A stretch of DNA of 64,000 nt from Candidatus Nomurabacteria bacterium (GTDB taxonomy: Bacteria > Patescibacteriota > Minisyncoccia > Phycocordibacterales > UBA918). The DNA lies in NCBI GenBank assembly GCA_020631995.1, contig JACKGJ010000001.1:225753-289752 (forward strand), written 5' to 3'. How positions within the stretch are numbered: the first letter of the stretch is position 1; the number at the start of each line of letters is the position of its first letter. The notes under the pieces were generated by a model. That model did not search any database and was not told the origin of the DNA. It saw only the letters and a list, made by a program, of their open reading frames with translations. The position numbers were made by a program, and so were the translations under genes. Below, piece by piece: positions 597-61,258 of the stretch.

Positions 597-667
597 CGGG
601 GCATAGTATAGTGGTAGTATATACGGTTTGGGACCGTAAGATCTGAGTTCGATTCTCAGTGCCCCGA
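597..667 (+). tRNA. tRNA-Pro (anticodon UGG)
   Basis: Hand-folded cloverleaf of 71 nt. Acceptor CGGGGCA/TGCCCCG, anticodon stem TACGG/CCGTA, loop TTTGGGA (UGG, G37), T arm CTGAG-TTCGATT-CTCAG. No encoded CCA. Confidence 0.9.
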
Positions 668-679
668 CAAAGTAAGGAA

Positions 680-716
680 AATCAAAAGACCGACTAAAAT
701 AGTCGGTCTTTTGATT
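680..716 (+). terminator. Hairpin terminator after tRNA-Pro
   Basis: Perfect 17-bp stem AATCAAAAGACCGACTA / TAGTCGGTCTTTTGATT with a 3-nt loop. The U-rich 3' arm lies inside the stem. Confidence 0.6.
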
Positions 717-811
717 TGCCATACAAAAAATTCATTGAGACTCTATATCCAGCCAGAGATTGACCATAAACCATATTATGACTGTTACCTTCCATCCTTC
801 TGTCTCTCCCT

Positions 812-1315: not shown

Positions 1316-1395
1316 TTTAAGTATTATAACCACAATACAAGTAGATTTGAGGAACGTTTCATGTGCAACGTCACTCGGTACGTTTCACGTGAAAC
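921..1395. repeat. Six dispersed copies of the 14-bp palindrome GTTTCAYRTGAAAC
   Basis: Copies at 921-934 (TTTTCACGTGAAAC), 1059-1072 (GTTTCGTGTGAAAC), 1095-1108 (GTTTCATATGAAAC), 1134-1147 (GTTTCACGTGAAAA), 1356-1369 (GTTTCATGTGCAAC) and 1382-1395 (GTTTCACGTGAAAC). Four lie inside yraN and two lie upstream of it. Confidence 0.9.
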
Positions 1396-1807
1396 ATAGT
1401 AAAATACATTAAAGTCATAAAAGACCCTTATTTTAAGCCATTTTCGATAAATTGCCCTAAAAAATCTAATGTCCTTTATCCACTTGTCCCCTTAGTTGTC
1501 CACAATTTTGGCGTTCTGATTGTCAATTGTCGTTTTATGGGGATAAGTAGGGGAGTGAAGATGATTTTGGTAATAAGTGACGAGTAGACAGCAAATATCC
1601 TTCTATTCATAGTCGAAAAAAGACCTGTAAAAGGCGTTTTTCCGAGAGCGTGATTTCTGTATTGGTTGTCGCTATTTTATGCTGGGGTCAAGTTGCTAAG
1701 TAAAATTGTTCACTTCGCTCCAATTTATACTAAGCACTTCCTCCCCGGCCTCGACTGCTTTTGTTTCTAGGAAATGAAACAAAAACATGTCTCTGACTCA
1801 CAAAAAG

Positions 1808-1846
1808 CGAAAGGACCTGAAGCAATTCAGGTCCTTTCGTCTTTTT
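1808..1846. terminator. Bidirectional intrinsic terminator
   Basis: CGAAAGGACCTGAA-gcaa-TTCAGGTCCTTTCG is a 14-bp stem with a T-run on the + side (TCTTTTT) and on the - side (CTTTTTG). Confidence 0.8.
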
Positions 1847-1847
1847 G

Positions 1848-2008
1848 TGCGGCCAGGGGTAATCGAAACCCGCTTTTTCTAATTCGTTACACTCATAAGA
1901 ACGCTGGTCGTGCCTCACTCGCATTTTGCCTTAGGAAAGGGCTAAATACACCGTTCCGGCAGTTTCGATTACCCCGAAAGGTGCGCAGGCACCTTTCTCC
2001 TGGCCGCA
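1848..2008 (-). other. tRNA-Gly-derived rod-like element (direct plus inverted copies of the tRNA 3' end)
   Basis: 1848-1871 is identical over 24 nt to the tRNA-Gly 3' end at 2045-2068. 1962-1975 and 2001-2008 are the inverted copy, interrupted by a 25-nt insert containing the hairpin GAAAGGTGC-gcag-GCACCTTTC. The termini can pair as GCGGCCA/TGGCCGC plus GGGGTAATCGAAAC/GTTTCGATTACCCC. Confidence 0.6.
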
Positions 2009-2010
2009 CA

Positions 2011-2035
2011 TATGAGAAAACGCCCTTACGGGCGT
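2011..2035 (-). terminator. Intrinsic terminator after tRNA-Gly
   Basis: On the minus strand, ACGCCC-gtaa-GGGCGT is followed by TTTCTC. Confidence 0.55.
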
Positions 2036-2044
2036 CTCTCTGTG

Positions 2045-2115
2045 TGCGGCCAGGGGTAATCGAAACCCCGACTAATCCTTGGCAAGGACTCGTTATACCA
2101 CTTAACCATGGCCGC
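2045..2115 (-). tRNA. tRNA-Gly (anticodon GCC)
   Basis: Cloverleaf of 71 nt. Acceptor GCGGCCA/TGGCCGC, anticodon stem AGTCC/GGATT, loop TTGCCAA, T arm GGGGT-TTCGATT-ACCCC. No encoded CCA. The overlapping track ORFs are artefacts. Confidence 0.9.
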
Positions 2116-2123
2116 ATTTACAT

Positions 2124-2792
2124 TTATTTGGACAACTCCTTTGAAGCCAGTTCAATCCATTTCATGAGCTTTCGCTTCAAGTAAGCGTTCCCGATTATAG
2201 TATTTCCAACACCATTGTGCAATGTTCTTTTGTGACTTTTCCCTTGGACAATTTGAGTTTTATAAAATTGGCTTTCTGGTAGCTTAACAGCCTTCATCCA
2301 AACCTTTTTGCATTCCTTTTCGGATAGATCAGGGTAGAGAAGTAGCCAGAAACGTATGTCCTTTTTGGGCACTCCTAAGAATTCAGTAGCGAACTTAATA
2401 AAAATCGTATGTAAGGCAGGTTTAGAGTTAGTGACACGTATCAATCTGCCATCACTAGTGTCACCCTCACCAGCGTAAAGCATTAAGCCAGCCATAAAAA
2501 GAGGGGAGAGCTTGTAATGCTTATATTCAACCGAGGCACTCTTAACCGCTTCACTGTAGTGGCGCTCTCGCTCACGACCTCGATACTTATTTAAAACAGC
2601 CAGTCTCTTAACATTGTCTTTACGAGCTCGCTTTTCATTGTCCGCTCGTACCTTCTTAGAGAAGGATTGCTTAGCAAACCAAAGACTAAGTGTGCTTGGG
2701 GATACACCTACCATTTTAGAAATTTCAGAGTAGGTAAACCCACGTTTCCTAAAATCCCTAGCTTTTGCGTGCTTTTCTGCGTTTCGAATCAT
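2124..2792 (-). CDS. HTH + single LAGLIDADG-like motif protein (putative homing-endonuclease family), 8 nt upstream of tRNA-Gly
   Basis: N-terminal HTH-like RKRGFTYSEISKMVGVSPSTLSLWF. The dodecapeptide-like LFMAGLMLYAGEGD is followed by a basic C-terminal half. Paralogous in pattern to 3270-3944. TATAAT lies 6 nt before the ATG. Confidence 0.6.
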   Translation of the reverse strand: MIRNAEKHAKARDFRKRGFTYSEISKMVGVSPSTLSLWFAKQSFSKKVRADNEKRARKDNVKRLAVLNKYRGRERERHYSEAVKSASVEYKHYKLSPLFMAGLMLYAGEGDTSDGRLIRVTNSKPALHTIFIKFATEFLGVPKKDIRFWLLLYPDLSEKECKKVWMKAVKLPESQFYKTQIVQGKSHKRTLHNGVGNTIIGNAYLKRKLMKWIELASKELSK

Positions 2793-3269: not shown

Positions 3270-3944
3270 TCATTTTAGGTGATGTTCAACAAGCATATTT
3301 TGCCAAAAGCGCATTTTGCAAAGCAGGTTCTTACTTCTCCTCACTTCAATCTTAATGCATCCCATATAAGCTGGTCTCTTTTTGACACCAAGTCCTGTCG
3401 GCTTGTAAATCGTTTTAACAAATCGTGAGGAAGTAACCTGCAACTTTTCCGCCCACCAGCCTTCACAATTTTCGTGAGCGTAAGGTTTATGGATATAAAG
3501 TCTAAAAAAGATATCCTCAGGGCCTATTAGTGCATATTCGTGTAACCACTGAAGCATCACTAGTATCATATCTTCGTCAGAATTTGAAAAACTCCATTGA
3601 TTTACTCTCTTAGCGCCCTCTGCCCAATACAAAGCCAAACCAACTTGAAATAAAGTATCATCCTTATATTTTTGGAATATCTGGCGAGCTTCTTGTAGCC
3701 AAAGAGCCTCTCTTTCCAACCTCCTTTTACGCAACTCAGAAGCTGCCTTAATACGACCACGAGTTATATTAGTATTTTTGCGGTCTTTTAGTACAAGCTT
3801 TTCACTTTTTGTAAGGGGAAGTTCGGCCAACCACAATGAAAGAGAACTTTTTGCCACAGGCACTTCGGCAAGGATTTCTTTATAGCTATATCCTTTTTTC
3901 CGCAAATATATAGCCCTTTCTTTTTCTTGAACCAAAGCTTTCAT
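3270..3944 (-). CDS. HTH + single LAGLIDADG-like motif protein, 19 nt upstream of tRNA-Arg
   Basis: RKKGYSYKEILAEVPVAKSSLSLWL (HTH-like) and LFQVGLALYWAEGAK (dodecapeptide-like). The domain order and length match 2124-2792. Confidence 0.6.
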   Translation of the reverse strand: MKALVQEKERAIYLRKKGYSYKEILAEVPVAKSSLSLWLAELPLTKSEKLVLKDRKNTNITRGRIKAASELRKRRLEREALWLQEARQIFQKYKDDTLFQVGLALYWAEGAKRVNQWSFSNSDEDMILVMLQWLHEYALIGPEDIFFRLYIHKPYAHENCEGWWAEKLQVTSSRFVKTIYKPTGLGVKKRPAYMGCIKIEVRRSKNLLCKMRFWQNMLVEHHLK

Positions 3945-27913: not shown

Positions 27914-30900
27914 ATGATGAGATATATAGACACTCTAAACGAACGACAAAAAGAAGCGGTATTGACTACCGAAGGGCCTTTGTTGGTACTGGCTGGAGCA
28001 GGTAGTGGTAAGACTAAAACCATTACCCACCGTATTGTGCACCTCATTCACCAAGGAACAGCACCACATAATATTCTAGCGGTCACCTTCACCAACAAGG
28101 CGGCCAAAGAGATGCGTGAACGTGCACTCAGTCTTATTAAGGAATATCCTCCCTCTGAGCGCGCCTTATTAGACTCAATCCCGATAATAACCACCTTCCA
28201 CTCATTTGGTGTCCGGCTACTTAGAGAATTTCACGAGGCAGCCGGGCTTCGTCGACACTTCGTAATCTTTGACCGAGCAGATAGCGTACGTGCTATAAAG
28301 GTAGCGATTGAAAAAGCTGGGTACAATCCAAAAGAATTTGAACCTCGCAAAGTGCTCTCTATAATTTCTCGAGCTAAAGGAGATGCACTGTCCCGTGGAG
28401 ATTTCGCTGACGAAGCAAGGTCGTACCCGGAGAAAGTAGCAGTAGCTGTCTGGGAACACTACGAACAAAAACTGCGAGAAGATCACGCTTTAGACTTTGA
28501 CGACCTTTTGTTGAAGACACTACGCCTTCTGCAATCAAACCAGAACGTAAGAGAAACGCTCCAGAAACGTTTCCACTATATACACATCGATGAATACCAG
28601 GACACCAACAAAGTGCAGTATGAGATTGCTAGACTACTAGCGGGAGAGAAACAAAATATCTGTGTTGTTGGGGACATCGATCAATGTCTAATCGCTGGAA
28701 CAAAAGTAACAATGGAAGATAACAAGGTGAAGCCAATTGAAGAGATACAAAAAGGAGATTTGGTTCTTTCTAATTACGGAGGTGGTAAATTCGCACCCGC
28801 TCCTGTAGAGAGAGTATATAAAAAAAGCAATAAAAAACCCTTGATTAAAATAACCACAGCTACTGGCAAAACTATCACTAGCACCCCTGAACATACGCAC
28901 TTTGCTGGATATAGGCTAGACGTATCTCCACAATTACACTTCACATATTTGATGTACAAAAAGAATACTGGTTGGCGACTTGGTGTGACTTCTGTACATA
29001 CAAAGGGGCAAATAAGACCTCAGGTCGGTTTTATACAAAGATGCAATCAAGAAAAGGGTGACGCATTGTGGATTTTATCGACCCATCAATCTTCAAATGA
29101 AGCACGGGTCAATGAGTATTTATTGTCTTTGCGGTATCAAATCCCCACACTACCTTTTGTGGCTAGAAAAGGTGCAAGTCAAAATGGCTACGTACATAAC
29201 CAAGAGTTGTTGAATAAAATTTTTGCGTCATTTGATACTGATAATGGAGCAAGAAAATTACTGAATGACAGTCAACTACTCATTAACTACCCTCACCACC
29301 AACCCCAAGCTTCAAAGAGTGGCCGTATAAATTTAACCATCACACTCTGTGGAGATAGTCGCGGTAATTCTGTCCTACACCGCATTAGCATTGTTAGTCA
29401 AAATATAGAAGTAAAGAGAAAGTTAGAGTCACTCGGCTTGTCTGTTAGAAAAGCTAAAGCTGACAGCCCCGCCGTTCGTTTCGAAACTTCTCACAAATCT
29501 TTTAACACAATTCAAAAAATAACCTCCGACATACAACAGGTGATTCCTGACATCAACATCAATTTACGCGCCCGTTTAGCTAAACAAGCTAATAAAGATA
29601 AATTTGAAAGCGTTTCTCTTGCCTTCATGCCCGCAGTAAGTGTACGAGAAGGAATGGCGATGTTTGACGACAAAGGTGGTTATGAAATAGTAAAAAAGAC
29701 AGAAGAGGTACTTTCTAGTGATTTTGTTTATGATCTTGATATTTCAAACACTCACAACTTTATCGCTAATGGTATCGTGACCCACAACTCAATCTACTCT
29801 TGGCGCGGTGCAGATATAAAGAATGTTCTTCAATTTGAACGCCACTTTAAAAACGCCAAGACTATTCTCCTTGAACAAAACTACCGTAGCACAAAAACAA
29901 TTGTTGAAGCTTCGAATAAAGTAATTGCTAAGAACCAAAACCGGGTAGAAAAAATAGTTTTTACCGACAACCTGGAAGGGGAGAAGATTACCGTGTTTGG
30001 AGCTTTCTCTGGGGGAGAGGAGGCTGACTATATTGCGAGAGAGGCTGCCAAACTAATAGAGAACGGGGCCTCCCCGTCGGAGGTAGCTGTCTTATTTAGA
30101 ACCAACTTCCAGTCACGCGCTCTTGAAGAGGCTTTTTTAAACCAAGACATTCCTTATCAGGTATTAGGGGTAAAATTCTTTGAACGTAAAGAAGTAAAAG
30201 ACGTGTTGTCTTACCTACGTCTATCACTCAACCCAGGATCAAGTGCTGATTTGGCACGAGTGATTAATTCGCCAGCGAGGGGGATCGGCAAAGTAACCGT
30301 GCTAAAAGTTCTATCTGGACAACGCAATGAATTAAAAGGAGCGACTCTAGCTAAAGTAGAAGCCTTTGACCAGATGATGATGGACATAGCTGACGAAGCA
30401 AGAACGAAAAAACTATCTGAGACTCTACGTTTTATCATCACTAGAACCGGGCTCGAAATGACCCTGAAAAAAGGTGGCACTGACGAAGATTTAGAGAGGC
30501 TAGAAAACTTACGGGAGCTGGTTTCACTATCAACTCGTTACGACGAGATGGGGCCAGAGGAGGGAGTGGAGGCTTTATTAGAAGACGCTGCTCTCCAAAG
30601 TGACCAAGATGAAATAAAAGAAAAGGAGGAAAAGGATGCTGTACTACTAATGACCGTACACGCTGCAAAAGGTTTGGAGTTTCCCTATGTCTTTGTGAGT
30701 GGACTTGAAGAAGGACTATTCCCGCACGAGCGACTCGACGCCACTGGCATTGATCAAGAAGAGGAGAGACGATTATTTTATGTGGCCTTAACTCGGGCCG
30801 GAGTGAAACTCTGGCTTACGTACGCCAATTCACGAATGATCTTTGGTTCAACTCGAGTTAACCTACCTTCTTCATTCCTTATGGATATTGATCCTGAACT

Positions 30901-31003
30901 AGTAGAACTTGAAGGTTCAGGACGTGCCGGTGGAAAAGCTGCTCGTAAAGCAGGTCTACTTGATGATTGGGATGACTGGGATGAGGGTTATGTCATAACT
31001 TAG
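27914..31003 (+). CDS. pcrA: PcrA/UvrD-type DNA helicase interrupted by an in-frame intein
   Basis: Motif I GAGSGKT, Ia TFTNKAA, II DEYQDT. Motif III is split as VVGDIDQ | intein | SIYSWRGAD. Later motifs are LEQNYRS, TVHAAKGLEF and RRLFYVALTRA. The extein totals 661 aa. Confidence 0.9.
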   Translation: MMRYIDTLNERQKEAVLTTEGPLLVLAGAGSGKTKTITHRIVHLIHQGTAPHNILAVTFTNKAAKEMRERALSLIKEYPPSERALLDSIPIITTFHSFGVRLLREFHEAAGLRRHFVIFDRADSVRAIKVAIEKAGYNPKEFEPRKVLSIISRAKGDALSRGDFADEARSYPEKVAVAVWEHYEQKLREDHALDFDDLLLKTLRLLQSNQNVRETLQKRFHYIHIDEYQDTNKVQYEIARLLAGEKQNICVVGDIDQCLIAGTKVTMEDNKVKPIEEIQKGDLVLSNYGGGKFAPAPVERVYKKSNKKPLIKITTATGKTITSTPEHTHFAGYRLDVSPQLHFTYLMYKKNTGWRLGVTSVHTKGQIRPQVGFIQRCNQEKGDALWILSTHQSSNEARVNEYLLSLRYQIPTLPFVARKGASQNGYVHNQELLNKIFASFDTDNGARKLLNDSQLLINYPHHQPQASKSGRINLTITLCGDSRGNSVLHRISIVSQNIEVKRKLESLGLSVRKAKADSPAVRFETSHKSFNTIQKITSDIQQVIPDININLRARLAKQANKDKFESVSLAFMPAVSVREGMAMFDDKGGYEIVKKTEEVLSSDFVYDLDISNTHNFIANGIVTHNSIYSWRGADIKNVLQFERHFKNAKTILLEQNYRSTKTIVEASNKVIAKNQNRVEKIVFTDNLEGEKITVFGAFSGGEEADYIAREAAKLIENGASPSEVAVLFRTNFQSRALEEAFLNQDIPYQVLGVKFFERKEVKDVLSYLRLSLNPGSSADLARVINSPARGIGKVTVLKVLSGQRNELKGATLAKVEAFDQMMMDIADEARTKKLSETLRFIITRTGLEMTLKKGGTDEDLERLENLRELVSLSTRYDEMGPEEGVEALLEDAALQSDQDEIKEKEEKDAVLLMTVHAAKGLEFPYVFVSGLEEGLFPHERLDATGIDQEEERRLFYVALTRAGVKLWLTYANSRMIFGSTRVNLPSSFLMDIDPELVELEGSGRAGGKAARKAGLLDDWDDWDEGYVIT
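28685..29788 (+). mobile_element. Intein (368 aa) in PcrA helicase motif III
   Basis: It starts with Cys (CLIAGTKV...), has block B TSTPEHTHF, and ends ...VYDLDISNTHNFIANGIVTHN followed by Ser+1. The coordinates are in frame with 27914. The central ~230 aa have no LAGLIDADG or HNH motif that I can see. Confidence 0.85.
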
Positions 31004-37237: not shown

Positions 37238-37648
37238 ATGCGCTTTGAAGTTCCACAATTTATTGAAATAGAAGACAAAATATTTGGTCCACTAACCTGG
37301 AAGCAATTTGTGTATGTTGCTGGTGGGGGAGGGTTAGCTGCTGTGTTTTTCTTCTTTACTCCGTTTATCATATTTGTATTAATCGGTATTCCAATTGCTA
37401 TCCTAACTTTCCTTTTAAGTTTTTATCCAGTTAACAATCGTCCCTTTGTTTTATTTCTTGAATCTGCAGTCAACTACTTTAAGGGTTCGAAGCTGTACTT
37501 ATGGCGGAAAAGTGGCAGTGGGGTATACAAAGGTGCCGAAATCGAAGCCAGTGGTAGCCCATCATATATGCCTCCAACTAGCGCTGATAATATCGCTTCT
37601 TTGTCGAGGAGGTTAGAGATGAAGGCAATACAAAAACCTAATCAGTAG
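37238..37648 (+). CDS. T4SS-like cluster gene 5: PrgI/VirB3-like small membrane protein
   Basis: MRFEVPQFIEIEDKIFGPLTWKQFVYVAGG followed by two TM helices, the pattern I associate with PrgI-family proteins. Confidence 0.6.
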   Translation: MRFEVPQFIEIEDKIFGPLTWKQFVYVAGGGGLAAVFFFFTPFIIFVLIGIPIAILTFLLSFYPVNNRPFVLFLESAVNYFKGSKLYLWRKSGSGVYKGAEIEASGSPSYMPPTSADNIASLSRRLEMKAIQKPNQ

Positions 37649-37767
37649 CATTTGTTTTAAAGTGGTACTCCTGTGTCCAGCCTTGAGAGTGAGTTTATAC
37701 ATATAGTTGACGGTGTGAGTTAAGTGTCAATTTAAAGCTGTTGGATGTTAGAATATTAATATCAACA

Positions 37768-38403
37768 ATGGCAAATCAGAACACTAGTCAAAAATTCGTA
37801 CCACTTAGAGACATCAAAGATAATGTGGTGATTCTTAAAAATGGCCAAATGAATATGGTGCTTTTAGCGTCTTCGATTAACTTCGCACTGAAGTCACTAG
37901 ACGAACAGGAAGCAATCCTGCGACAGTTTCAAACATTCCTAAACACCATAGACTTCTCAGTGCAATTTTATATTCAATCTCGTCGACTGAATATTCAGCC
38001 CTACCTCGATATGTTATCTGGTCGTGAAGAAAAACAAGATAATGACCTGATGAAGATTCAGCTTCGTGAATATATGCAATTCATCAAGACTTTTACCACC
38101 GAGGTAGAGGTGATGAGTAAAAGTTTCTTTATTGTTGTGCCATACACACCTGTTGCGGCCAACCTTCAAAACAATCTTGAAGGATTCAAGGATTTAATCG
38201 GAGGGAAGAAAGACGTATACTTTGACGACAAGAACTTTATGGAGCATAAGCTTCAACTTGAGCAACGTGTCTCATTAGTAGAGCAAGGGCTGTCTGGAAT
38301 AGGCGTGCGCACCATTTTATTGCAAAGCGAAGAGTTAGTTGAATTGTATTATCACATCTTCAATCCCGGCGAGGTTGGAGGGACCGCACCAGGTGGTAAA
38401 TAG
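37768..38403 (+). CDS. T4SS-like cluster gene 6: stand-alone VirB4 N-domain-like protein
   Basis: FVPLRDIKDNVVILKNGQMNMVLLASSINFALKSLDEQEAILRQFQTFLNTIDFSVQFYIQSRRLNIQPYL parallels the N-terminal domain pattern of the adjacent VirB4. No Walker motifs. Confidence 0.45.
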   Translation: MANQNTSQKFVPLRDIKDNVVILKNGQMNMVLLASSINFALKSLDEQEAILRQFQTFLNTIDFSVQFYIQSRRLNIQPYLDMLSGREEKQDNDLMKIQLREYMQFIKTFTTEVEVMSKSFFIVVPYTPVAANLQNNLEGFKDLIGGKKDVYFDDKNFMEHKLQLEQRVSLVEQGLSGIGVRTILLQSEELVELYYHIFNPGEVGGTAPGGK

Positions 38404-38407
38404 TTTT

Positions 38408-40210
38408 ATGGGAATTTTTGATTTTATAAAAAAAGGGAACAGAGAAGGAGACAACAAATCAGCGCTAGACACTGAGAGTGCTTTAATGACACTTGAAGAT
38501 GTAGTGGCGCCTTCGGCTGTATCAGTCAGCCCACGCAGCATTAGTATCAGCGGACAAAACGCTCGAGTATTTTTCGCAGTTTCATATCCTCGCTATCTCA
38601 ATGACGGTTGGCTAGAACCGATTCTTAACCTAGAGAAGGAACTAGATGTTTCAATAGTCATTCACCCTATTGATACCGCTGAGACTTTAAAAAAATTCCA
38701 AAAGAAAGTGGCCGAGGTACAGAGTCAGATTAGTATGAACGAAGAGAAGGGAATGGTGCGTGACCCACAACTTGAAGCTGCTTATCGAAACCTAGAAGAA
38801 CTTCGAGACAAGCTCCAACAGGCTGAGGAAAAGCTGTTTGATGTTGGCCTTTATATTGCCGTCTACGGTAAAGATGATGACGCGCTCAACAAAACTGAGT
38901 CAGAGGTGAAGGGTATTTTGGATTCAAGACTAGTCTATATAAAACCTGCTCTTTTCCAGCAAGAACAAGGTTTGCGAAGCGTCTTACCTACAATGACTGA
39001 TGAATTATTAGTGCATAGTAAATTTAATTCTTCACCTTTATCTAGCTTCTTCCCGTTCACTTCGTTTGACCTAACTAGCGACAACGGTATTCTCTACGGT
39101 ATCAACCGCCATAATTCCTCACTGGTACTATTCGATCGCTTTTCGCTCACCAACTACAACTCTGTTACTTTTGCTACTTCTGGAGCGGGTAAGTCTTATG
39201 CAATCAAACTCGAAATATTGCGCTCTTTGATGTTCGGCACAGAGGTCATTGTCATCGACCCAGAACGTGAATATGAGTACTTAGCTGAAGCAACTGGTGG
39301 ACGATTTTTCAACATTGCACTTTCCTCTGCTCACCACATTAACCCATTTGATTTGCCCGATCCGCAAGAGGACGAAGAACCAATGGACATTTTGCGTTCA
39401 CATATTATTGAATTAACCGGACTCTTCCGTTTAATGCTTGGGGGACTTACGCCTGAAGAGGAGACAGTTATCGATCAAGCCCTGCACGAAGTCTACGCCC
39501 TCAAGGACATTACTGGTGACGTAAGTTGGTCAGGACAAGAACCGCCACTTTTGACTGACTTTGAAATGGTACTAGCTGGAATGGATGGCAGTGATTCACT
39601 AATTGCTAGACTACAAAAGTACACCAGCGGTACTTGGTCGGGCTTTATGAACCAACCTACTAACGTAGACATCAATCAAAAGTTCATCGTTTTCTCCCTC
39701 CGCGATATGGAAGACGAACTAAAGTCCGTAGCTATGTACATCATCACGAATCATATTTGGAATATGGTTCGCCGACGACTAAAGAAGCGTTTACTAGTAA
39801 TCGACGAGGCCTGGTGGATGATGAAGTCAGAGGACACCGCCTCCTTCCTCTTTTCACTCGCCAAACGTGGTCGTAAATATTATCTTGGTATCGCCACCAT
39901 CACACAGGACGTAGACGACTTCTTGCGCTCACCTTATGGAGTACCGATGATTACAAACTCTTCATTGCAGTTTTTAATGAAACAATCACCGACTTCAATT
40001 GACCTTCTTCAACGCACCTTTAACCTAACAGATGAAGAAAAACTATTGCTCCTAGAAAGTAACGTAGGGGAGGGAATCTTCTTCGTCGGACTCAAACACG
40101 TAGCTATTAAAGTTATTGCTAGTTACACTGAAGACCAAATCATCACCTCTGACCCTCACCAAATTCTCCAAATCAAGCAAGCTCGAGCTGAATTAAAGAG
40201 CGCCTCTTAA
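38408..40210 (+). CDS. virB4: T4SS-like cluster gene 7: VirB4/TrbE-family ATPase
   Basis: N-domain (ISISGQNARVFFAVSYPRYLNDGWLEPIL...DVSIVIHPI), Walker A TSGAGKSYAIK, Walker B LLVIDEAWWMM, and ATITQDVDDF. ATG at 38408. Confidence 0.85.
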   Translation: MGIFDFIKKGNREGDNKSALDTESALMTLEDVVAPSAVSVSPRSISISGQNARVFFAVSYPRYLNDGWLEPILNLEKELDVSIVIHPIDTAETLKKFQKKVAEVQSQISMNEEKGMVRDPQLEAAYRNLEELRDKLQQAEEKLFDVGLYIAVYGKDDDALNKTESEVKGILDSRLVYIKPALFQQEQGLRSVLPTMTDELLVHSKFNSSPLSSFFPFTSFDLTSDNGILYGINRHNSSLVLFDRFSLTNYNSVTFATSGAGKSYAIKLEILRSLMFGTEVIVIDPEREYEYLAEATGGRFFNIALSSAHHINPFDLPDPQEDEEPMDILRSHIIELTGLFRLMLGGLTPEEETVIDQALHEVYALKDITGDVSWSGQEPPLLTDFEMVLAGMDGSDSLIARLQKYTSGTWSGFMNQPTNVDINQKFIVFSLRDMEDELKSVAMYIITNHIWNMVRRRLKKRLLVIDEAWWMMKSEDTASFLFSLAKRGRKYYLGIATITQDVDDFLRSPYGVPMITNSSLQFLMKQSPTSIDLLQRTFNLTDEEKLLLLESNVGEGIFFVGLKHVAIKVIASYTEDQIITSDPHQILQIKQARAELKSAS

Positions 40211-44665: not shown

Positions 44666-44890
44666 AAGTGACACAAATATATAGGAAATATATTAAAAGT
44701 CAACGCTGATTTTCAATAGGGCAACTAAGTCACCTAAGAAAACTTATCCCCATCTTATCCACATTGACGCTTTAAAGGATTCTCGGCGGTTTAGTTTCTC
44801 AGGTAAATTTACCCCAAAAGTTTACACGCCAAATGAGGAGAGTATAATGCTTTGCATCGAGTTGTTAATCGCCAACCTCAATCACCGATT

Positions 44891-46270
44891 ATGAATCAAG
44901 CCTCTCCATCAATCTCTAACAACTTTATGCAGACTGAACAAGTAGACATAAAGAAACTCTGGGACGACACCTTGGTCAACATCGAATTGGCAATCACTCC
45001 CGCTAATTTCAAAACTTGGTTTCGAGATACCCGCATTGTGTCACTTGAGGACGGCACAATTGTACTAGGTGTTCCAAGTGTTTTCGTCAGGGACTGGTTG
45101 AAGGACAAGTTCCAACCAATGATTCTGCGTGTACTACGTGAAAATGCTCCTTTTGTACGCAACATTGACTATAGCGTAGTAGCCCGTAGTGAAAAAAAAC
45201 AAGAAACCCGTGCCCAAAACATTAATGCTGCCCTGCCTCTTGAGGAGTACTACATAAATAAGAGCGACAACCTTAACCCACGATACTCTTTCGATACTTT
45301 TATAATCGGCCCTTTCAATGCCCTAGCACACGCAGCGGCCAAGACCGTAAGTGAACGACCAGGAATCACCTATAACCCACTCTTTATCTACGGAAAGACC
45401 GGGCATGGTAAAACCCACCTTATTCAAGCAGTGGGTAATCACCTAAAGAAGGGCGGTAAAAAAGTGTTTTACGTTACTGCAGAGCGTTTTACAGTTGATT
45501 ACTTCAACTCACTACAAAGCGGTACCGCTAACAGCTTCAAAGACAAATACCGTCAATATGACGTATTAGTAATGGACGACGTGCAGTTCTTAAACAGTAA
45601 GGAGAAGACTCAAGAAGAGTTGTTCCATCTGTTTAACACCCTACACGACAATAACAAACAGATAGTGTTTTCAAGTGACATTCACCCCGCTCTACTTTCA
45701 GGTATGGAAGAACGCCTTCAGTCACGTTTTGCGGCCGGAATGATCGTAGACATCCCAGCCCCTGACTTGGAGTCTAGGGCAGCCATTTTGAAGGCAAAAG
45801 CGGCACAAAACAGCATCGCACTAGCCGATGATGTTATTGAGTACCTAGCTGAGTCAATTAATGGCAACATCCGTGAATTAGAAGGTGCCCTAAACTCCAT
45901 AATGTGCCAATCTCAACTTTTGGGACGCATCCTAACAGTAGACGAGGTTCGACTCATTATTAAAAACAGCACCCGACCTCGTCGTAATATGGCTGTGGAT
46001 GATGTTGTGGAAAAAGTAGCCCAATTCTTCAAAATCGAAGCAGCTAGCATTTACGAGAAGACTCGTCGTAAAGAAGTAGTGAAACCACGTCAATTAATTA
46101 TGTATATCTTACGTGAAGATTTTGCCGTATCCTATCCACACATCGGACAAAAACTCGGGGGACGTGACCACACTACTGTTATTCACTCTTGTGAGAAGAT
46201 AAAAAATGAACTTAAACATAGTCCTGAACTAGAAGAAGAAGTTTCACAAATCAGAATGCTCCTAAAATAG
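44891..46270 (+). CDS. dnaA: Chromosomal replication initiator DnaA
   Basis: NPLFIYGKTGHGKTHL, DVLVMDDVQFL, the RELEGAL sensor region, and the C-terminal DNA-binding region GGRDHTTVIHS. First ATG at 44891 (the track TTG is at 44852). DnaA boxes TTATCCCCA (44744-52) and TTATCCACA (44755-63) lie upstream. Confidence 0.95.
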   Translation: MNQASPSISNNFMQTEQVDIKKLWDDTLVNIELAITPANFKTWFRDTRIVSLEDGTIVLGVPSVFVRDWLKDKFQPMILRVLRENAPFVRNIDYSVVARSEKKQETRAQNINAALPLEEYYINKSDNLNPRYSFDTFIIGPFNALAHAAAKTVSERPGITYNPLFIYGKTGHGKTHLIQAVGNHLKKGGKKVFYVTAERFTVDYFNSLQSGTANSFKDKYRQYDVLVMDDVQFLNSKEKTQEELFHLFNTLHDNNKQIVFSSDIHPALLSGMEERLQSRFAAGMIVDIPAPDLESRAAILKAKAAQNSIALADDVIEYLAESINGNIRELEGALNSIMCQSQLLGRILTVDEVRLIIKNSTRPRRNMAVDDVVEKVAQFFKIEAASIYEKTRRKEVVKPRQLIMYILREDFAVSYPHIGQKLGGRDHTTVIHSCEKIKNELKHSPELEEEVSQIRMLLK

Positions 46271-46271
46271 A

Positions 46272-46303
46272 TGAACAAAGCGCCCTCTTGGGCGCTTTGT
46301 TCA
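46272..46303 (+). terminator. dnaA terminator hairpin
   Basis: TGAACAAAGCGCCC-tctt-GGGCGCTTTGTTCA is a 14-bp stem. Confidence 0.7.
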
Positions 46304-46753
46304 TTCAGCAACAAAAGTGGCTGAATAGATAGGGAACAAAAGTTTGATAACTTGTGGAAAACATACAGATAAGTCTGGGGAAAATAGCCCGAACAGCACG
46401 GTATAAGGTGGGGATCAAAACCTTTCAAAACGATGGATAAAACCCCGAGATCTTCATAGCCCCACTTACCCCCAGGCTACTACATAGGTTATAGGTAGAG
46501 GCCTGTGGAAAACAATTGTAAAAATAACTAAGTTTAGGGCCCTAAAATGCAGTTTTCCCGCAATCCACAGGGCTAATAGTAGTAAGGGTTTTGTTTAAAA
46601 ATAAAAATTTACCCCCACTATCCACAAGTCAACACGAGTGAAGTTCAAGGACAACTAAGCCGAAGAGACAAATGAGACAGTTGCGTTATAATGAAGACAA
46701 TACGAACGACAGTCACTGTAAAACACTTATAAATACGTTGTAGCTTCAATAGA
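46304..46753. other. Candidate oriC (dnaA-dnaN intergenic region)
   Basis: DnaA-box-like 9-mers: TGTGGAAAA (46353-61 and 46504-12), ATGGATAAA (46433-41), AATCCACA (46562-69) and CTATCCACA (46618-26). AT-rich tract TTTTGTTTAAAAATAAAAATTTA (46589-46611). Confidence 0.7.
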
Positions 46754-47848
46754 ATGAAAATTACACTCAATCAGAAAGACTTCTACGAAAGGTTGGAGAT
46801 GGTGGGGAGAGTAAGTGCTAAGCATGTTACTTTGCCGGTTTTGCAGTGTGTGTATCTGGAGGCGAAAGGTAGTGATTTGGTAATGAGGGCAACAAACCTT
46901 GAGATTGCTGTTGAGGCAACGGTTGTTGCTGATGTGACTGAAGAGGGTGTTGTGGCAGTTCCAGCTTCAGTTTTACTACAAACAGTGAGTTTAAATAAAG
47001 AGAAATCAGTTACTTTGCGTGCTGAAGACGGTGGTTTGGTTGTGGAAGCTAGTGGGTCAGAAACTTTGATTAAGTCCATTCCTCACGAAGAGTTTCCTTC
47101 TATACCAAAAGTGGAAGGTGGAGGGCAAACAATTAACAATCATTTGTTTAGTCTAGGTATCAAGTCTTCGGCTTTTGCTGCTTCGGTATCCTCGATTAAG
47201 CCTGAGCTAGGTAGTGTGTATATTTTTCAGAAGAAGGAACATAGTCTTACTTTTGTAGCTACGGACTCGTTTCGTTTGATGGAAAAGTCTGTTCCACAAA
47301 AAGGTGTAATTTTTGAGTCGTCAGTTTTGTTGCCACAGAAGAACGCCTTGGAAATTGCTCGCGTTTTAGATTCTGTTTCTTCTGATCCGGTCTGTCGGTT
47401 TAATGATAATCAGTTCTCTTTGGAATTTAGTGAGGGTGTTTATATAACTTCACGACTTATCTCTGGGTCTTTCCCTGACTACGAACAGATTATGCCGAAG
47501 GAGTTTGCGGCCAAGGTTACTCTACTCAAAGAAGATCTGGTGCGTGCTTTTAAGAAAACGAGTATATTTTTAAATAAATTTGCTCAAGTGGGCCTCTATA
47601 TAACCAAAGGTTCTTTGACAGTCTCCGCTGTAGGAGGGGAGTTGGGAACAACTACTGAATCATTAAAGGCAGAAACTGAAGGGGAGGAACTCACTTTGAA
47701 TTTTAATCAAAGATACCTTTCGGAAGTGTTGTCCCATATGGTGGATGATAGTGTTGTCTTACAGTTCTCGGGAGTGGGTAGGCCGGTTGTAATAAAGGGT
47801 GTTTCAGATGCTTCTGTTCGTTATCTTGTTATGCCGATGAACAAATAA
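46754..47848 (+). CDS. dnaN: DNA polymerase III beta sliding clamp
   Basis: 364 aa with a three-domain repeat flavour (LQCVYLEAKGSDLVMRATNLE..., ATDSFRL, PVVIKG...YLVMPM), located directly after dnaA/oriC. Confidence 0.9.
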   Translation: MKITLNQKDFYERLEMVGRVSAKHVTLPVLQCVYLEAKGSDLVMRATNLEIAVEATVVADVTEEGVVAVPASVLLQTVSLNKEKSVTLRAEDGGLVVEASGSETLIKSIPHEEFPSIPKVEGGGQTINNHLFSLGIKSSAFAASVSSIKPELGSVYIFQKKEHSLTFVATDSFRLMEKSVPQKGVIFESSVLLPQKNALEIARVLDSVSSDPVCRFNDNQFSLEFSEGVYITSRLISGSFPDYEQIMPKEFAAKVTLLKEDLVRAFKKTSIFLNKFAQVGLYITKGSLTVSAVGGELGTTTESLKAETEGEELTLNFNQRYLSEVLSHMVDDSVVLQFSGVGRPVVIKGVSDASVRYLVMPMNK

Positions 47849-60430: not shown

Positions 60431-61258
60431 ATGAAGTCTTTCAAACAGATATGCATTGATTTGCGTCGGAAGGACCATACCCTGAACGAAATTATTGAAA
60501 TAACAGGTCGTAGCAAGACCACTGTTTATTACCATATTAAGGACATTGCCCTTAGCGAAGAGAAGCGTAAACAAATTTCAGAGAATTCAAGAAGATTGGC
60601 GATTGGGGTCGCATCTTCACGTCGAGGTATTGCATTACGTCCATTTCAACCATTTGATAAATGGACACCCGAACTCGTTTTACTAACTGCCCACATGGTT
60701 TTTGACGGCGAGATTTCAAAGACTTGTGCCTATAACAATCGAAGTTCCGCTTTGATAGGAAGGTTTGTAATGCTAATGAAACAGGTATATAGCTTCCCAC
60801 CCAAACGTTATTTAAATTCAGTGACTGGAGTTATTAAAGTTTGCTATAACAATGTAGCAATGGCAAACTTTTTCAAACTTAAATCTAATGAGTTGTTAAG
60901 TTGCATCCCTGAATTACCAACAAGTTACCAGAGAGAATTTCTGAGAGCTTTTTTTGATGACGAGGGTTGTATGGATTTTAGAACAATAAAGAATAAACGC
61001 AGTATAAGAGGCTATCAAAATGACGTGACAATTCTTCGTACAGTAGAACTTTTGCTTAAAAATTTTGATATTGACTCGAAGCTTCAGGGTCGCAATGAAG
61101 TTGTTATATCGGGTAAGGAGAATTTAATTAGATTCCGCGATGAGATCAATTTTTCTAAAGGAGTTCGCATTAACCCCAATCGTACCAACAGCTTATGGAA
61201 GAAAAATTTGGAAAAAAGGAAATTATTAGATATGGCCATAGCCTCCTTTAAGAAATGA
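60431..61258 (+). CDS. HTH + double-motif LAGLIDADG-type homing endonuclease-like protein
   Basis: The ATG lies 4 nt after the tRNA-Lys 3' end. HTH-like segment HTLNEIIEITGRSKTTVYYHIKD. Two dodecapeptide-like motifs, LLTAHMVFDGEI and FLRAFFDDEGCM. The stop overlaps the next gene's ATG (ATGA). Confidence 0.7.
   Translation: MKSFKQICIDLRRKDHTLNEIIEITGRSKTTVYYHIKDIALSEEKRKQISENSRRLAIGVASSRRGIALRPFQPFDKWTPELVLLTAHMVFDGEISKTCAYNNRSSALIGRFVMLMKQVYSFPPKRYLNSVTGVIKVCYNNVAMANFFKLKSNELLSCIPELPTSYQREFLRAFFDDEGCMDFRTIKNKRSIRGYQNDVTILRTVELLLKNFDIDSKLQGRNEVVISGKENLIRFRDEINFSKGVRINPNRTNSLWKKNLEKRKLLDMAIASFKK

Follow-up and report, generated by a model that had tools for sequence, protein, structure and literature searches.

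A family of small cassettes, probably encoding structured RNAs, behind the tRNA and tmRNA genes of Patescibacteria

Why does the 3' end of a tRNA-Gly gene recur twice just downstream of the gene, once forward and once backward, on the two sides of a core that does not resemble a tRNA? The locus that raises this question lies in a 64,000-nt stretch of DNA, referred to below in its whole length as the window, and all coordinates are counted from the first letter of that stretch. The parts of the locus are listed in Table 1.

A comparison of the window with itself (blastn, E = 4e-9) reveals that the 3' end of the intact tRNA-Gly gene is repeated exactly downstream of the gene, with the two copies 197 nt apart. 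A preliminary description of this DNA had reported a duplication of 24 nt, which is exact and in fact extends to 26 nt (1846-1871 = 2043-2068). The repeated segment, S1, consists of the 3' part of the T arm, the acceptor 3' strand and the discriminator, followed by 2 trailer nt. The same segment is also present in inverted orientation as two blocks, 1962-1975 (complementary at 14/14 positions) and 1999-2010 (12/12), the second of which is longer than previously noticed. The insert that separates the two blocks is a 9-bp hairpin, as had been described, and is located at 1976-1997 (hairpin H). The antisense and sense copies pair with each other and close the RNA as a rod, in which the first 12 bp correspond to the acceptor/T-stem stack of the resident tRNA. 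On the tRNA-sense strand the rod has a folding energy of -75.6 kcal/mol (z = -7.3), and on the opposite strand the value is -71.5 kcal/mol (z = -6.8). None of 200 shuffled sequences folds as well as the rod, which bears out the closure proposed earlier. The combination of repeat and inverted repeat is far above chance.

The unit bounded by the two arms measures 165 nt (window 2010 to 1846, minus strand), and the complete cassette, including the hairpin that precedes the arms, occupies 1846-2042. The 90-nt core had been said to be free of tRNA features, and indeed ARAGORN and cmscan (E up to 1) call neither a tRNA nor a tRNA pseudogene in 1846-2010. Additionally, no tmRNA is found in the window by ARAGORN, the core has no further copy in the 64 kb, and three of the four tRNAs in the window lack any cassette. 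Upstream of the unit, the sole promoter-like site is the one ahead of tRNA-Gly (2221-2194). The bidirectional terminator placed near 1808-1846 in the preliminary description is confirmed at 1807-1840. At 2011-2035, where the preliminary description placed the terminator of tRNA-Gly, a hairpin is indeed present, but it was not picked up by the simple scan for terminators. A single ORF, of 26 aa, lies across the unit and is not kept in relatives. The DnaA-box-like motifs near 1400-1550 were considered as a replication origin, a candidate that is ruled out by the position of dnaA and dnaN at 45-48 kb.

An identical arrangement is present in independent assemblies from other samples, one from ENA (L117) and one from Logan (L118). 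These two assemblies rule out a misassembly, the doubt that the preliminary description had attached to the duplication, and the unit is conserved in relatives. Three observations go beyond that description, namely the membership of the unit in a family, its polymorphism between strains, and an adjoining degenerate cassette at ~1647-1801.

Table 1. Parts of the tRNA-Gly locus in window coordinates, in the order of transcription of the tRNA gene.
Feature	Position	Strand	Remarks
Sigma-70-like promoter match, TGCACA-16-TATAAT	2194..2221	minus	Consensus match only; 79 nt upstream of tRNA-Gly
tRNA-Gly(GCC), intact, CCA not encoded	2045..2115 (called as 2044/2045-2115)	minus	ARAGORN and Rfam
S1, last 24 nt of tRNA-Gly and 2 trailer nt	2043..2068	minus	Template of both copies
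GNRA-capped hairpin, spacer between tRNA and cassette	2011..2035	minus	Terminator-like; not called by simple terminator scan
P1 5' strand, exact antisense of acceptor 3' strand, discriminator and CA trailer	1999..2010	minus	
Hairpin H, 9-bp stem with CUGC loop	1976..1997	minus	Splits the antisense copy in two
S' (P2 5' strand), antisense of T-stem 3' strand, T loop and G52-U53	1962..1975	minus	
Conserved core, three-way junction	1872..1961	minus	
Core P3	1958-1961 pairing with 1911-1914	minus	
Core variable hairpin, UUCCUA loop	1921-1949	minus	
Core P4	1903-1909 pairing with ~1868-1873	minus	
Core P5 hairpin, tandem G.A pairs (UGAG..CGAA)	1879-1899	minus	
S2 (P2 and P1 3' strands), sense copy of the tRNA 3' end	1846..1871	minus	26 nt identical to S1
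Bidirectional intrinsic terminator, strong, directly after S2	1807..1840	both	Sole terminator called by the scan
Second cassette, with a core of type C (a relative of A)	~1647..1801	minus	Arms and P3 degenerate
Remnant of the ancestral tRNA-Gly terminator	1612..1646	minus	Directly 3' of the tRNA in strain L121

Distribution and turnover of the cassettes

A species-level scan with one genome per species and the 24-nt tRNA end as query returned 63 loci, nearly all of which are labelled Patescibacteria/CPR (Paceibacteria, Kaiserbacteria, Nomurabacteria, Zambryskibacteria and others). A comparison of synteny at tRNA-Gly, as the preliminary description had proposed, reveals at least one cassette just behind the gene in 28 of the 59 species-level loci that have enough downstream sequence (single-sequence nhmmer), a count that is a lower bound, and an empty site in one strain (L121). 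Three core types recur: A, which is that of the window cassette, B, and C, which is related to A but lacks arms derived from a tRNA. Tandem arrays contain up to three cassettes in L019, L024, L057 and L061, and arrays are also present in L238 and L188. Further copies in these loci lie directly downstream of tRNA-Arg(UCG), tRNA-Arg(CCG), tRNA-Pro(UGG) and tRNA-Gly(UCC), on the same strand, and their antisense and sense arms match the 3' end of their own tRNA.

A metagenome scan was performed with a query that represents only the 3' end of the core subtype of the window, CGAA N0-1 TTAGAAAAAGCGGG, and a match was accepted as a real element when the 45 nt preceding the pattern also fitted an independent HMM of that segment. 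By this definition, 57 of the 120 matches listed are real elements, and in 40 of these 57 a tRNA on the same strand precedes the element by 125-170 nt. Elements of this core subtype are preceded by at least 21 tRNA isoacceptors, those among the matches listed being Val, Phe, Pro (two), Glu (two), Ser (three), Leu, Gln (two), His, Ala (two), Arg (two), Asp, Tyr, Trp and Cys. One further element among the matches listed (L131) lies behind a tmRNA gene.

The order of parts on the tRNA strand is tRNA, hairpin, antisense copy (often split by H), three-way-junction core and sense copy. The antisense copy runs from trailer positions +1/+2 through the discriminator and the acceptor 3' strand, usually then H, to the T-stem 3' strand and the T loop, and H is a conserved hairpin of 9-10 bp that is frequent in the family. 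The sense copy begins in the T loop (U54-C56). Elements of types A, B and C have no match in Rfam 15, whose models include Y RNA, 6S, SRP, group I and II introns, HEARO and ribozymes (window at E up to 1; six loci at E up to 0.1), and a literature search, which was not exhaustive, returned no description of such cassettes. Window positions 1846-2042 are a complete member of a widespread family, absent from Rfam 15, of small cassettes that probably encode structured RNAs and that occupy the 3' trailers of patescibacterial tRNA and tmRNA genes. The genomes of CPR/Patescibacteria are tiny, with almost no spare DNA; about half of the examined species nonetheless keep 150-500 nt of cassettes behind tRNA genes.

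The empty site is found in a near-identical strain that has an identical YraN protein and highly similar flanks (L121), where the tRNA is followed directly by the ancestral terminator. Because the two adjoin in this strain, the window carries ~400 extra nt, which consist of cassette A with its own hairpin, followed by a terminator and cassette C. The hairpin at 2011-2035 is missing at the empty site and is therefore part of the inserted DNA, and the second cassette (~1647-1801) is likewise missing there. In the closest species (L048, with 92% identity of the neighbouring protein), this site holds a B-type cassette with a different hairpin, followed by the same ancestral terminator. A three-way MAFFT alignment of the empty, B and A+C alleles is too gappy to be informative. 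In L042, L124 and L238 the whole unit of S and terminator is repeated identically, which is compatible with tandem duplication or with sequential events. The cassettes are thus gained, lost, swapped and tandemly multiplied among close relatives, as an indel bounded by direct repeats of the tRNA end. Copies inside one genome are roughly 75-80% alike as estimated by eye, which argues against a recent burst. In practice, such repeats break short-read assemblies at tRNA genes and can mislead predictors of att sites and islands, and the cassettes can be used as strain-level markers.

Origin of the arms and selection on the fold

The arms follow the gene behind which they stand. After the sequence ...GCGGG(A/U), every case among the matches listed continues as its own tRNA from C56 to the discriminator with 1-4 trailer bases, and 14 of 31 elements among these matches are identical to their own tRNA at 18/18 positions from C56 onwards. 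The longest exact antisense match has a mean length of 12.3 nt with the own tRNA and 5.4 nt with other tRNAs, again among the matches listed. The antisense arm contains the complement of gene-specific trailer bases, and the bases in front of it are likewise complementary to the trailer of that gene (CA, CG, CT etc.). In tRNAs with a U.U or G.U pair in the acceptor stem, the P1 5' strand is the exact complement of the 3' strand and not a copy of the 5' strand of the tRNA. Since P1 follows the complement of the 3' strand and includes the complement of the gene-specific trailer, both arms are copies of the 3' end of the gene. Each cassette takes its arms from the resident gene and has its core in common with the rest of the family.

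As judged from their sequences, the source of the arms is neither a mature, CCA-ended tRNA nor a duplicated whole tRNA. Two candidate origins were considered and ruled out. The P1 5' strand is not a leftover from the 5' half of a duplicated tRNA, as it matches the 3'-strand complement wherever the two differ, and the antisense arm is not a retroviral-type primer-binding site, as it lacks the CCA complement (no TGG at the 5' side). A CCA follows the sense copy in 8 of 41 copies, compared with 22 of 163 for all tRNAs, which is not convincing.

The antisense arm retains the complement of U54-U55 even in subfamilies in which the sense arm starts at C56, and it also pairs with the real tRNA by way of an extended palindrome. 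The tRNA itself could be the relevant partner of the antisense arm. A comparison of S':S1 with S':S2 pairing is biased by the way in which the copies are detected and is to be read qualitatively only.

The fold was analyzed in two alignments, A3 with 30 elements from different tRNAs and A2 with 18 A-type elements. In A3, 95% of the cells are paired, and the covariation score is 0.40, compared with 0.13 in shuffled alignments (0 of 500 reach 0.40) and at most 0.07 in slid controls. Double changes are observed in 10/10 pairs of P2 and in 3/4 pairs of P3 (CGGC/GCCG, CAGC/GCUG, CGAC/GUCG and CGCC/GGCG), and the P4 pair that adjoins the sense arm changes from U-A to A-U; the invariance of P4 and P5 is partly imposed by the search pattern. 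In A2, 9/9 pairs of hairpin H and 7/10 pairs of the variable hairpin exhibit double changes. The three-way junction of the core is formed by P2, by P3 with the variable hairpin, and by P4 with P5. Tandem G.A motifs (UGAG..CGAA; GGAG/CGAG) and GNRA loops are visible in the element sequences, G-U wobbles are present (e.g. UGUGGCCA:UGGCCGCA), and ~45 nt of the core are invariant.

Of 47 elements, 44 fold more stably as the tRNA-sense strand than as its complement, with a mean difference of 5 kcal/mol (p = 1e-7). Selection acts on the fold of this strand. In the diverged element L051, the antisense and sense arms covary as GCAGCUA/UGGCUGC, whereas UGGCCGC is retained in the tRNA. The antisense arm of L129, upstream of which no tRNA was detected, also covaries with its sense arm.

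Explanations for the cassettes

The explanation that we favour, with a confidence somewhat better than even, is a structured-RNA cassette that is gained and lost. It is predicted to be transcribed by read-through from the tRNA promoter, released as a rod by enzymes, bound at its core by a protein, turned over through the S repeats and retargeted through the T loop. The cassette would have no promoter of its own and would depend on the promoter of the tRNA (2221-2194), from which transcription may pass the weak hairpin at 2011-2035 and stop at 1807-1840, where the strong terminator lies. Owing to its likeness to a tRNA, the closing helix may then allow RNase P on the 5' side and a 3' tRNA-end nuclease to release a stable RNA of ~165 nt, of which the invariant G.A-rich core and arm would be the putative protein-binding part. 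Turnover may occur by recombination between S repeats, whether a cassette loops out and re-enters or is exchanged for another. The core is flanked at each end by the universal T-loop sequence, and template switching or recombination there could give rise to new tRNA specificities. Should the RNA be produced, it would be an abundant, unrecognised ribonucleoprotein of a huge uncultured radiation, for which a comparative data set is already at hand.

Several observations speak against this explanation. In many loci a good-looking terminator hairpin precedes the cassette, which would leave the cassette untranscribed. The acceptor/T-stem stack is exact, but pairing extends over the discriminator, +1/+2 and the T loop, and RNase P and RNase Z are candidates for the cleavage. 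Because P1 pairs beyond the end of the mature tRNA and the helix encloses the T loop, the closing stem does not look like a canonical substrate of RNase P, RNase Z or the CCA enzyme. The ~45-nt invariant core could equally be a protein-binding site at the DNA level. Additionally, no enzyme, circular form or near-identical copy indicative of recent transposition was seen. The overall interpretation in the preliminary description is supported in part: the misfit to a simple att scar was seen correctly, and a functional tRNA-like RNA and a tRNA-derived MITE were among the alternatives named, but the interpretation was too narrow, and its alternative of a decayed or excised integrative element is rejected.

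A further reading, which is possible but clearly the more tentative, is that of a mobile RNA gene with built-in retargeting. A ribonucleoprotein core would insert behind genes that end in a T arm and an acceptor strand, with both arms templated from the gene and with entry at the T loop. If true, this would be a sequence-copying and possibly RNA-guided insertion, unlike that of integrases, transposases, integrons and retroelements.

It is rather unlikely that the cassette is a DNA-only, non-autonomous selfish mini-element to which RNA is irrelevant. The single strand would fold into an att site, comparable to integron attC or the attP of CTX phage, that rebuilds the T-arm/acceptor duplex, and its recombination at the T loop would be the work of a tyrosine or HUH enzyme of the host or of a distant source. 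The insertion between direct repeats of the tRNA end, the empty and filled alleles, the tandem arrays beside a fixed site and the strand-specific folding are all consistent with such an element. The junction, moreover, always lies in the T loop, where GTTCGAW is near-palindromic and common to all targets, tmRNA included. The element also supplies its own hairpin or terminator for the tRNA, and the invariant core could serve as a recombinase site. Were the cassettes to move as DNA, no smaller insertion elements specific for tRNA genes would be known, and they would pose the puzzle of how a 90-nt core gains forward and backward copies of >20 targets.

The search for a mobility enzyme argues against the DNA-only element. 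No recombinase, transposase or RT is present among the 50 ORFs of the window (Pfam), no integrase remnant was found, and 1334-2043 contains no ORF of note. No protein family recurs beside the 57 elements among the matches listed, the neighbours being ordinary host genes. In the 63 loci there is no larger element bounded by tRNA-end repeats, no autonomous relative with the same repeats within 8 kb, and no repeat copy more than ~500 nt from the tRNA. A scan of viral contigs with a B-core 15-mer gave only chance matches in phage coding DNA and no copy of the element. The limited similarity of copies within a genome (see above) also fits poorly, the GNRA tetraloops, the tandem sheared G.A motifs and the expansion hairpins of variable size typify RNA structure and not that of DNA, and a single recombinase would need to accept >20 arm sequences. 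A 222-aa HTH/LAGLIDADG-like ORF beside the tRNA was considered as a partner enzyme and rejected, because its orthologue lies upstream of tRNA-Gly with or without cassettes.

Less probable still is a cis-acting switch on the tRNA transcript, in which the antisense arm would pair with S1 in read-through RNA, with S2 as a decoy, and thereby control maturation, decay or termination. In many loci (L006, L007 and L013, for example) a long palindrome runs almost without a break through S1, the hairpin and S', and S' retains the complement of U54-U55, two positions that many S2 copies lack. Four A-type elements have kept P1' and H although the acceptor part of S2 is lost, and the element always lies on the tRNA strand, directly downstream. 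In the diverged copies (L051 and L129), however, the antisense arm covaries with S2 and not with the tRNA. Half of the species and three of the four window tRNAs have no cassette, so the cassette is not a general requirement, and the switch leaves the large conserved core and the tandem arrays of different cores unexplained.

We consider it improbable that the cassettes are functionless by-products of replication errors, that is, of tandem-inversion duplication between two palindromes, the T arm and the terminator hairpin. An order of sense copy, palindromic spacer, antisense copy and sense copy is the product of snap-back and template switching at palindromes, the identically repeated unit of S and terminator in three loci (L042, L124 and L238) is in line with it, and the process could work at any tRNA gene. 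It cannot, however, yield a conserved 90-nt core or H, both of which are common to many species and >20 tRNA types. The flanks are often not the perfect palindrome that would be expected (e.g. L238), and in L048 as in the window the element brings a hairpin that is not the same as the native terminator. Tandem-inversion duplication may nevertheless have been the first step in the making of the arms.

The scar of an integrase-mediated island or prophage in tRNA-Gly that later decayed or was imprecisely excised, an alternative raised in the preliminary description, would account for a direct repeat downstream of an intact tRNA but is refuted in substance, as the interior covaries over dozens of species instead of decaying and recurs at >20 other tRNAs and the tmRNA, and as neither an integrase remnant, a distant att copy nor a larger repeat-bounded element is found in the 63 loci; the extra antisense copy likewise does not fit a simple att remnant, as had been recognised.

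Comparison with known systems

To our knowledge, which rests on a non-exhaustive survey, no other bacterial element has terminal arms that are a backward and a forward copy of whichever tRNA precedes it. The cassettes nevertheless share individual features with several systems, each of which has a defining feature that they lack. With the islands and prophages that tyrosine integrases insert into tRNA and tmRNA genes (at anticodon-loop, T-loop or 3'-end sublocations), they share the 3'-end site, the intact gene, a direct repeat that begins in the T loop, constant orientation, tandem arrays, and empty and filled alleles. A repeat-bounded insert beside an intact tRNA is present, but an integrase gene in or beside the insert is not. 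The cassettes measure 100-200 nt rather than kilobases and carry neither an integrase nor any other gene, and they differ further in the extra antisense copy, the RNA-type fold and the use of one core for >20 targets.

The resemblance to integron cassettes and their attC sites, CALIN arrays and the folded, single-stranded attP of CTX phage lies in small tandem units at a fixed site and in imperfect inverted repeats that fold in a strand-specific manner, which are features of attC arrays and of the cassettes alike. Hairpin H branches off the cassette helix rather like the extrahelical bases of attC. The T-loop sequence GTTCGAW is loosely similar to the GTTRRRY core site, and the ends ..ATCGAAC/GTTCGAW loosely fit RYYYAAC/GTTRRRY by inspection. 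In contrast to integrons, no IntI or Xer gene is linked to the cassettes, no integrase is present in the window or the loci, and the content is a hairpin only. The arms are copies of 14-24 nt from the neighbouring gene and not generic R and L boxes, and the centre is conserved rather than variable.

Like MITEs, REP/BIME, Correia and RPE elements, the cassettes are small, non-coding and intergenic, with terminal inverted repeats, a stable hairpin and insertion polymorphism. Their inverted repeats, however, copy the target gene, so that the arms change with the resident tRNA, and copies occur only behind tRNA and tmRNA genes, on the strand of the gene. They have no fixed short target-site duplication, no known parent transposon and no near-identical dispersed copies, and they exhibit compensatory changes.

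The OMEGA/reRNA systems of IS200/IS605 (TnpB, IscB) also combine an RNA scaffold with a 3' segment of ~20 nt that equals the adjacent target, and in the target of the cassettes that sequence directly follows a short motif common to all tRNAs, GGTT of the T loop. The cassettes differ in that no TnpB, IscB or TnpA gene is found in their vicinity, an antisense copy within the element covers the 'guide', the tRNA upstream has stayed intact, and no Rfam or HEARO-type match is obtained.

Group I introns occur in the T loop of tmRNA genes (PMC11915505), which is the only loosely related item that the literature search returned. Such introns share with the cassettes the entry point in the T loop and an internal segment complementary to the exon or gene. 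The cassettes, however, measure ~90-170 nt, with neither a group I core nor a match to Rfam Intron_gpI, their tRNA is complete, which leaves nothing to splice, and the complementarity extends over 14-24 nt.

From tRNA mimics (the tRNA-like domain of tmRNA, bacterial Y RNAs such as YrlA, RNAs processed by RNase P such as the C4 RNA of phages P1/P7, and mascRNA), the cassettes differ in their identity to the neighbouring tRNA, the paired T loop, a helix that extends past the mature 3' end, the presence or absence at the strain level and the lack of an Rfam match. In both, the two termini of a longer RNA form a 7-bp acceptor-like stem stacked on a T-stem-like helix and the 3' side ends in a discriminator, which makes tRNA-processing enzymes plausible users of the cassettes.

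Additional cassettes and variants of the core

A second cassette, with a core of type C (a relative of type A, the core type behind tRNA-Gly in the window), is present in this region. Its arms, the copies of the resident gene's 3' end, are degenerate and its helix P3 is weakened; additionally, the near-identical strain L121 lacks this cassette, which probably represents an older copy that has ceased to be maintained. Cassettes are also present 3' of tmRNA genes, with arms that are copies of the tmRNA 3' end; the tmRNA of locus L131 is confirmed by ARAGORN, and the cassettes of loci L125 and L141 were judged from sequence alone to lie behind tmRNA.

In some cores of type B, ~85 nt of additional sequence, delimited by CTTGAAC...GTTCAAG, lies within the GUAA loop of P4; this sequence represents either a small nested insertion or an expansion segment. 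In the variable hairpin of the core, a UUCCUA-like apical loop (CCUUUCCUAAGG, CCCUUCCUGG and similar) is very frequent, occurring at many loci as well as in the window, and is replaced by a UGAG-UUUA-CGAA hairpin in the short variants. The UUCCUA-like loop is complementary to AGGAA-type ribosome-binding sites and, on this basis, could serve as a regulatory seed.

Features of the window and related loci (window coordinates unless a locus is named)
Feature	Position	Strand	Remarks
Motifs TTGTGGACAACTAAGGGGACAAGTGGATAAAGGACA (DnaA-box-like) and GTTTCACGTGAAAC	~1380-1500		between cassettes and yraN
Type C cassette	1647-1801	-	3' of bidirectional terminator
UUCCUA-like loop	1931-1939		variable hairpin
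222-aa ORF	2124-2792	-	N-terminal HTH, LAGLIDADG-like motif
224-aa ORF	3270-3944	-	N-terminal HTH, LAGLIDADG-like motif
UvrD-like helicase gene with intein; PrgI-like and TraG/VirB4-like ATPase genes	27914-31003; 37238-40210	+; +	
dnaA, dnaN	44852-47848		
275-aa ORF	60431-61258	+	HTH, LAGLIDADG_3; starts 4 nt 3' of tRNA-Lys
tmRNA and cassette	L131 662-1052 and downstream		
B-type core, extra P4-loop segment	L027 ~630-760		
B-type core, extra P4-loop segment	L042 ~1480-1560		
B-type core, extra P4-loop segment	L063		

tRNA 3' ends and flanking sequence

CCA is rarely encoded by the tRNA genes of these bacteria (163 tRNAs, all loci). Usually, CA(A) comes directly after the discriminator; the three nucleotides in this position are CAA in 60 of the 163, CCA in 22, CAT in 17 and CAC in 14. 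The Logan short-read contigs of the window's strain (L001, L119 and L120) end or start at or inside the tRNA-end repeats and the cassette; breaks at the tRNA-Gly gene in de Bruijn assemblies are probably due to the 26-nt repeats.

The motifs TTGTGGACAACTAAGGGGACAAGTGGATAAAGGACA and GTTTCACGTGAAAC are strongly conserved and occupy the same place in L012, L014, L026, L046, L121 and the closest species, L048. This region is probably not oriC because dnaA and dnaN lie 43 kb away.

Genes adjoining tRNA genes and elsewhere in the window

The 222-aa and 224-aa ORFs are paralogues, in which the HTH and LAGLIDADG-like motif were recognised by eye, with only weak Pfam HTH matches, and a tRNA gene lies 8-20 nt beyond the end of each. 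In most of the 63 related loci (matches to the 24-nt tRNA-Gly end, with one genome scanned per species), tRNA-Gly is preceded at a distance of 6-23 nt by an orthologue of the 222-aa ORF; the 224-aa ORF, which precedes tRNA-Arg in the window, is absent from L121. The 275-aa ORF is a third homing-endonuclease-like gene adjoining a tRNA gene. Elsewhere, a UvrD-like helicase gene contains an intein, and the presence of the PrgI-like and TraG/VirB4-like ATPase genes suggests a type IV secretion or conjugation-like cluster.
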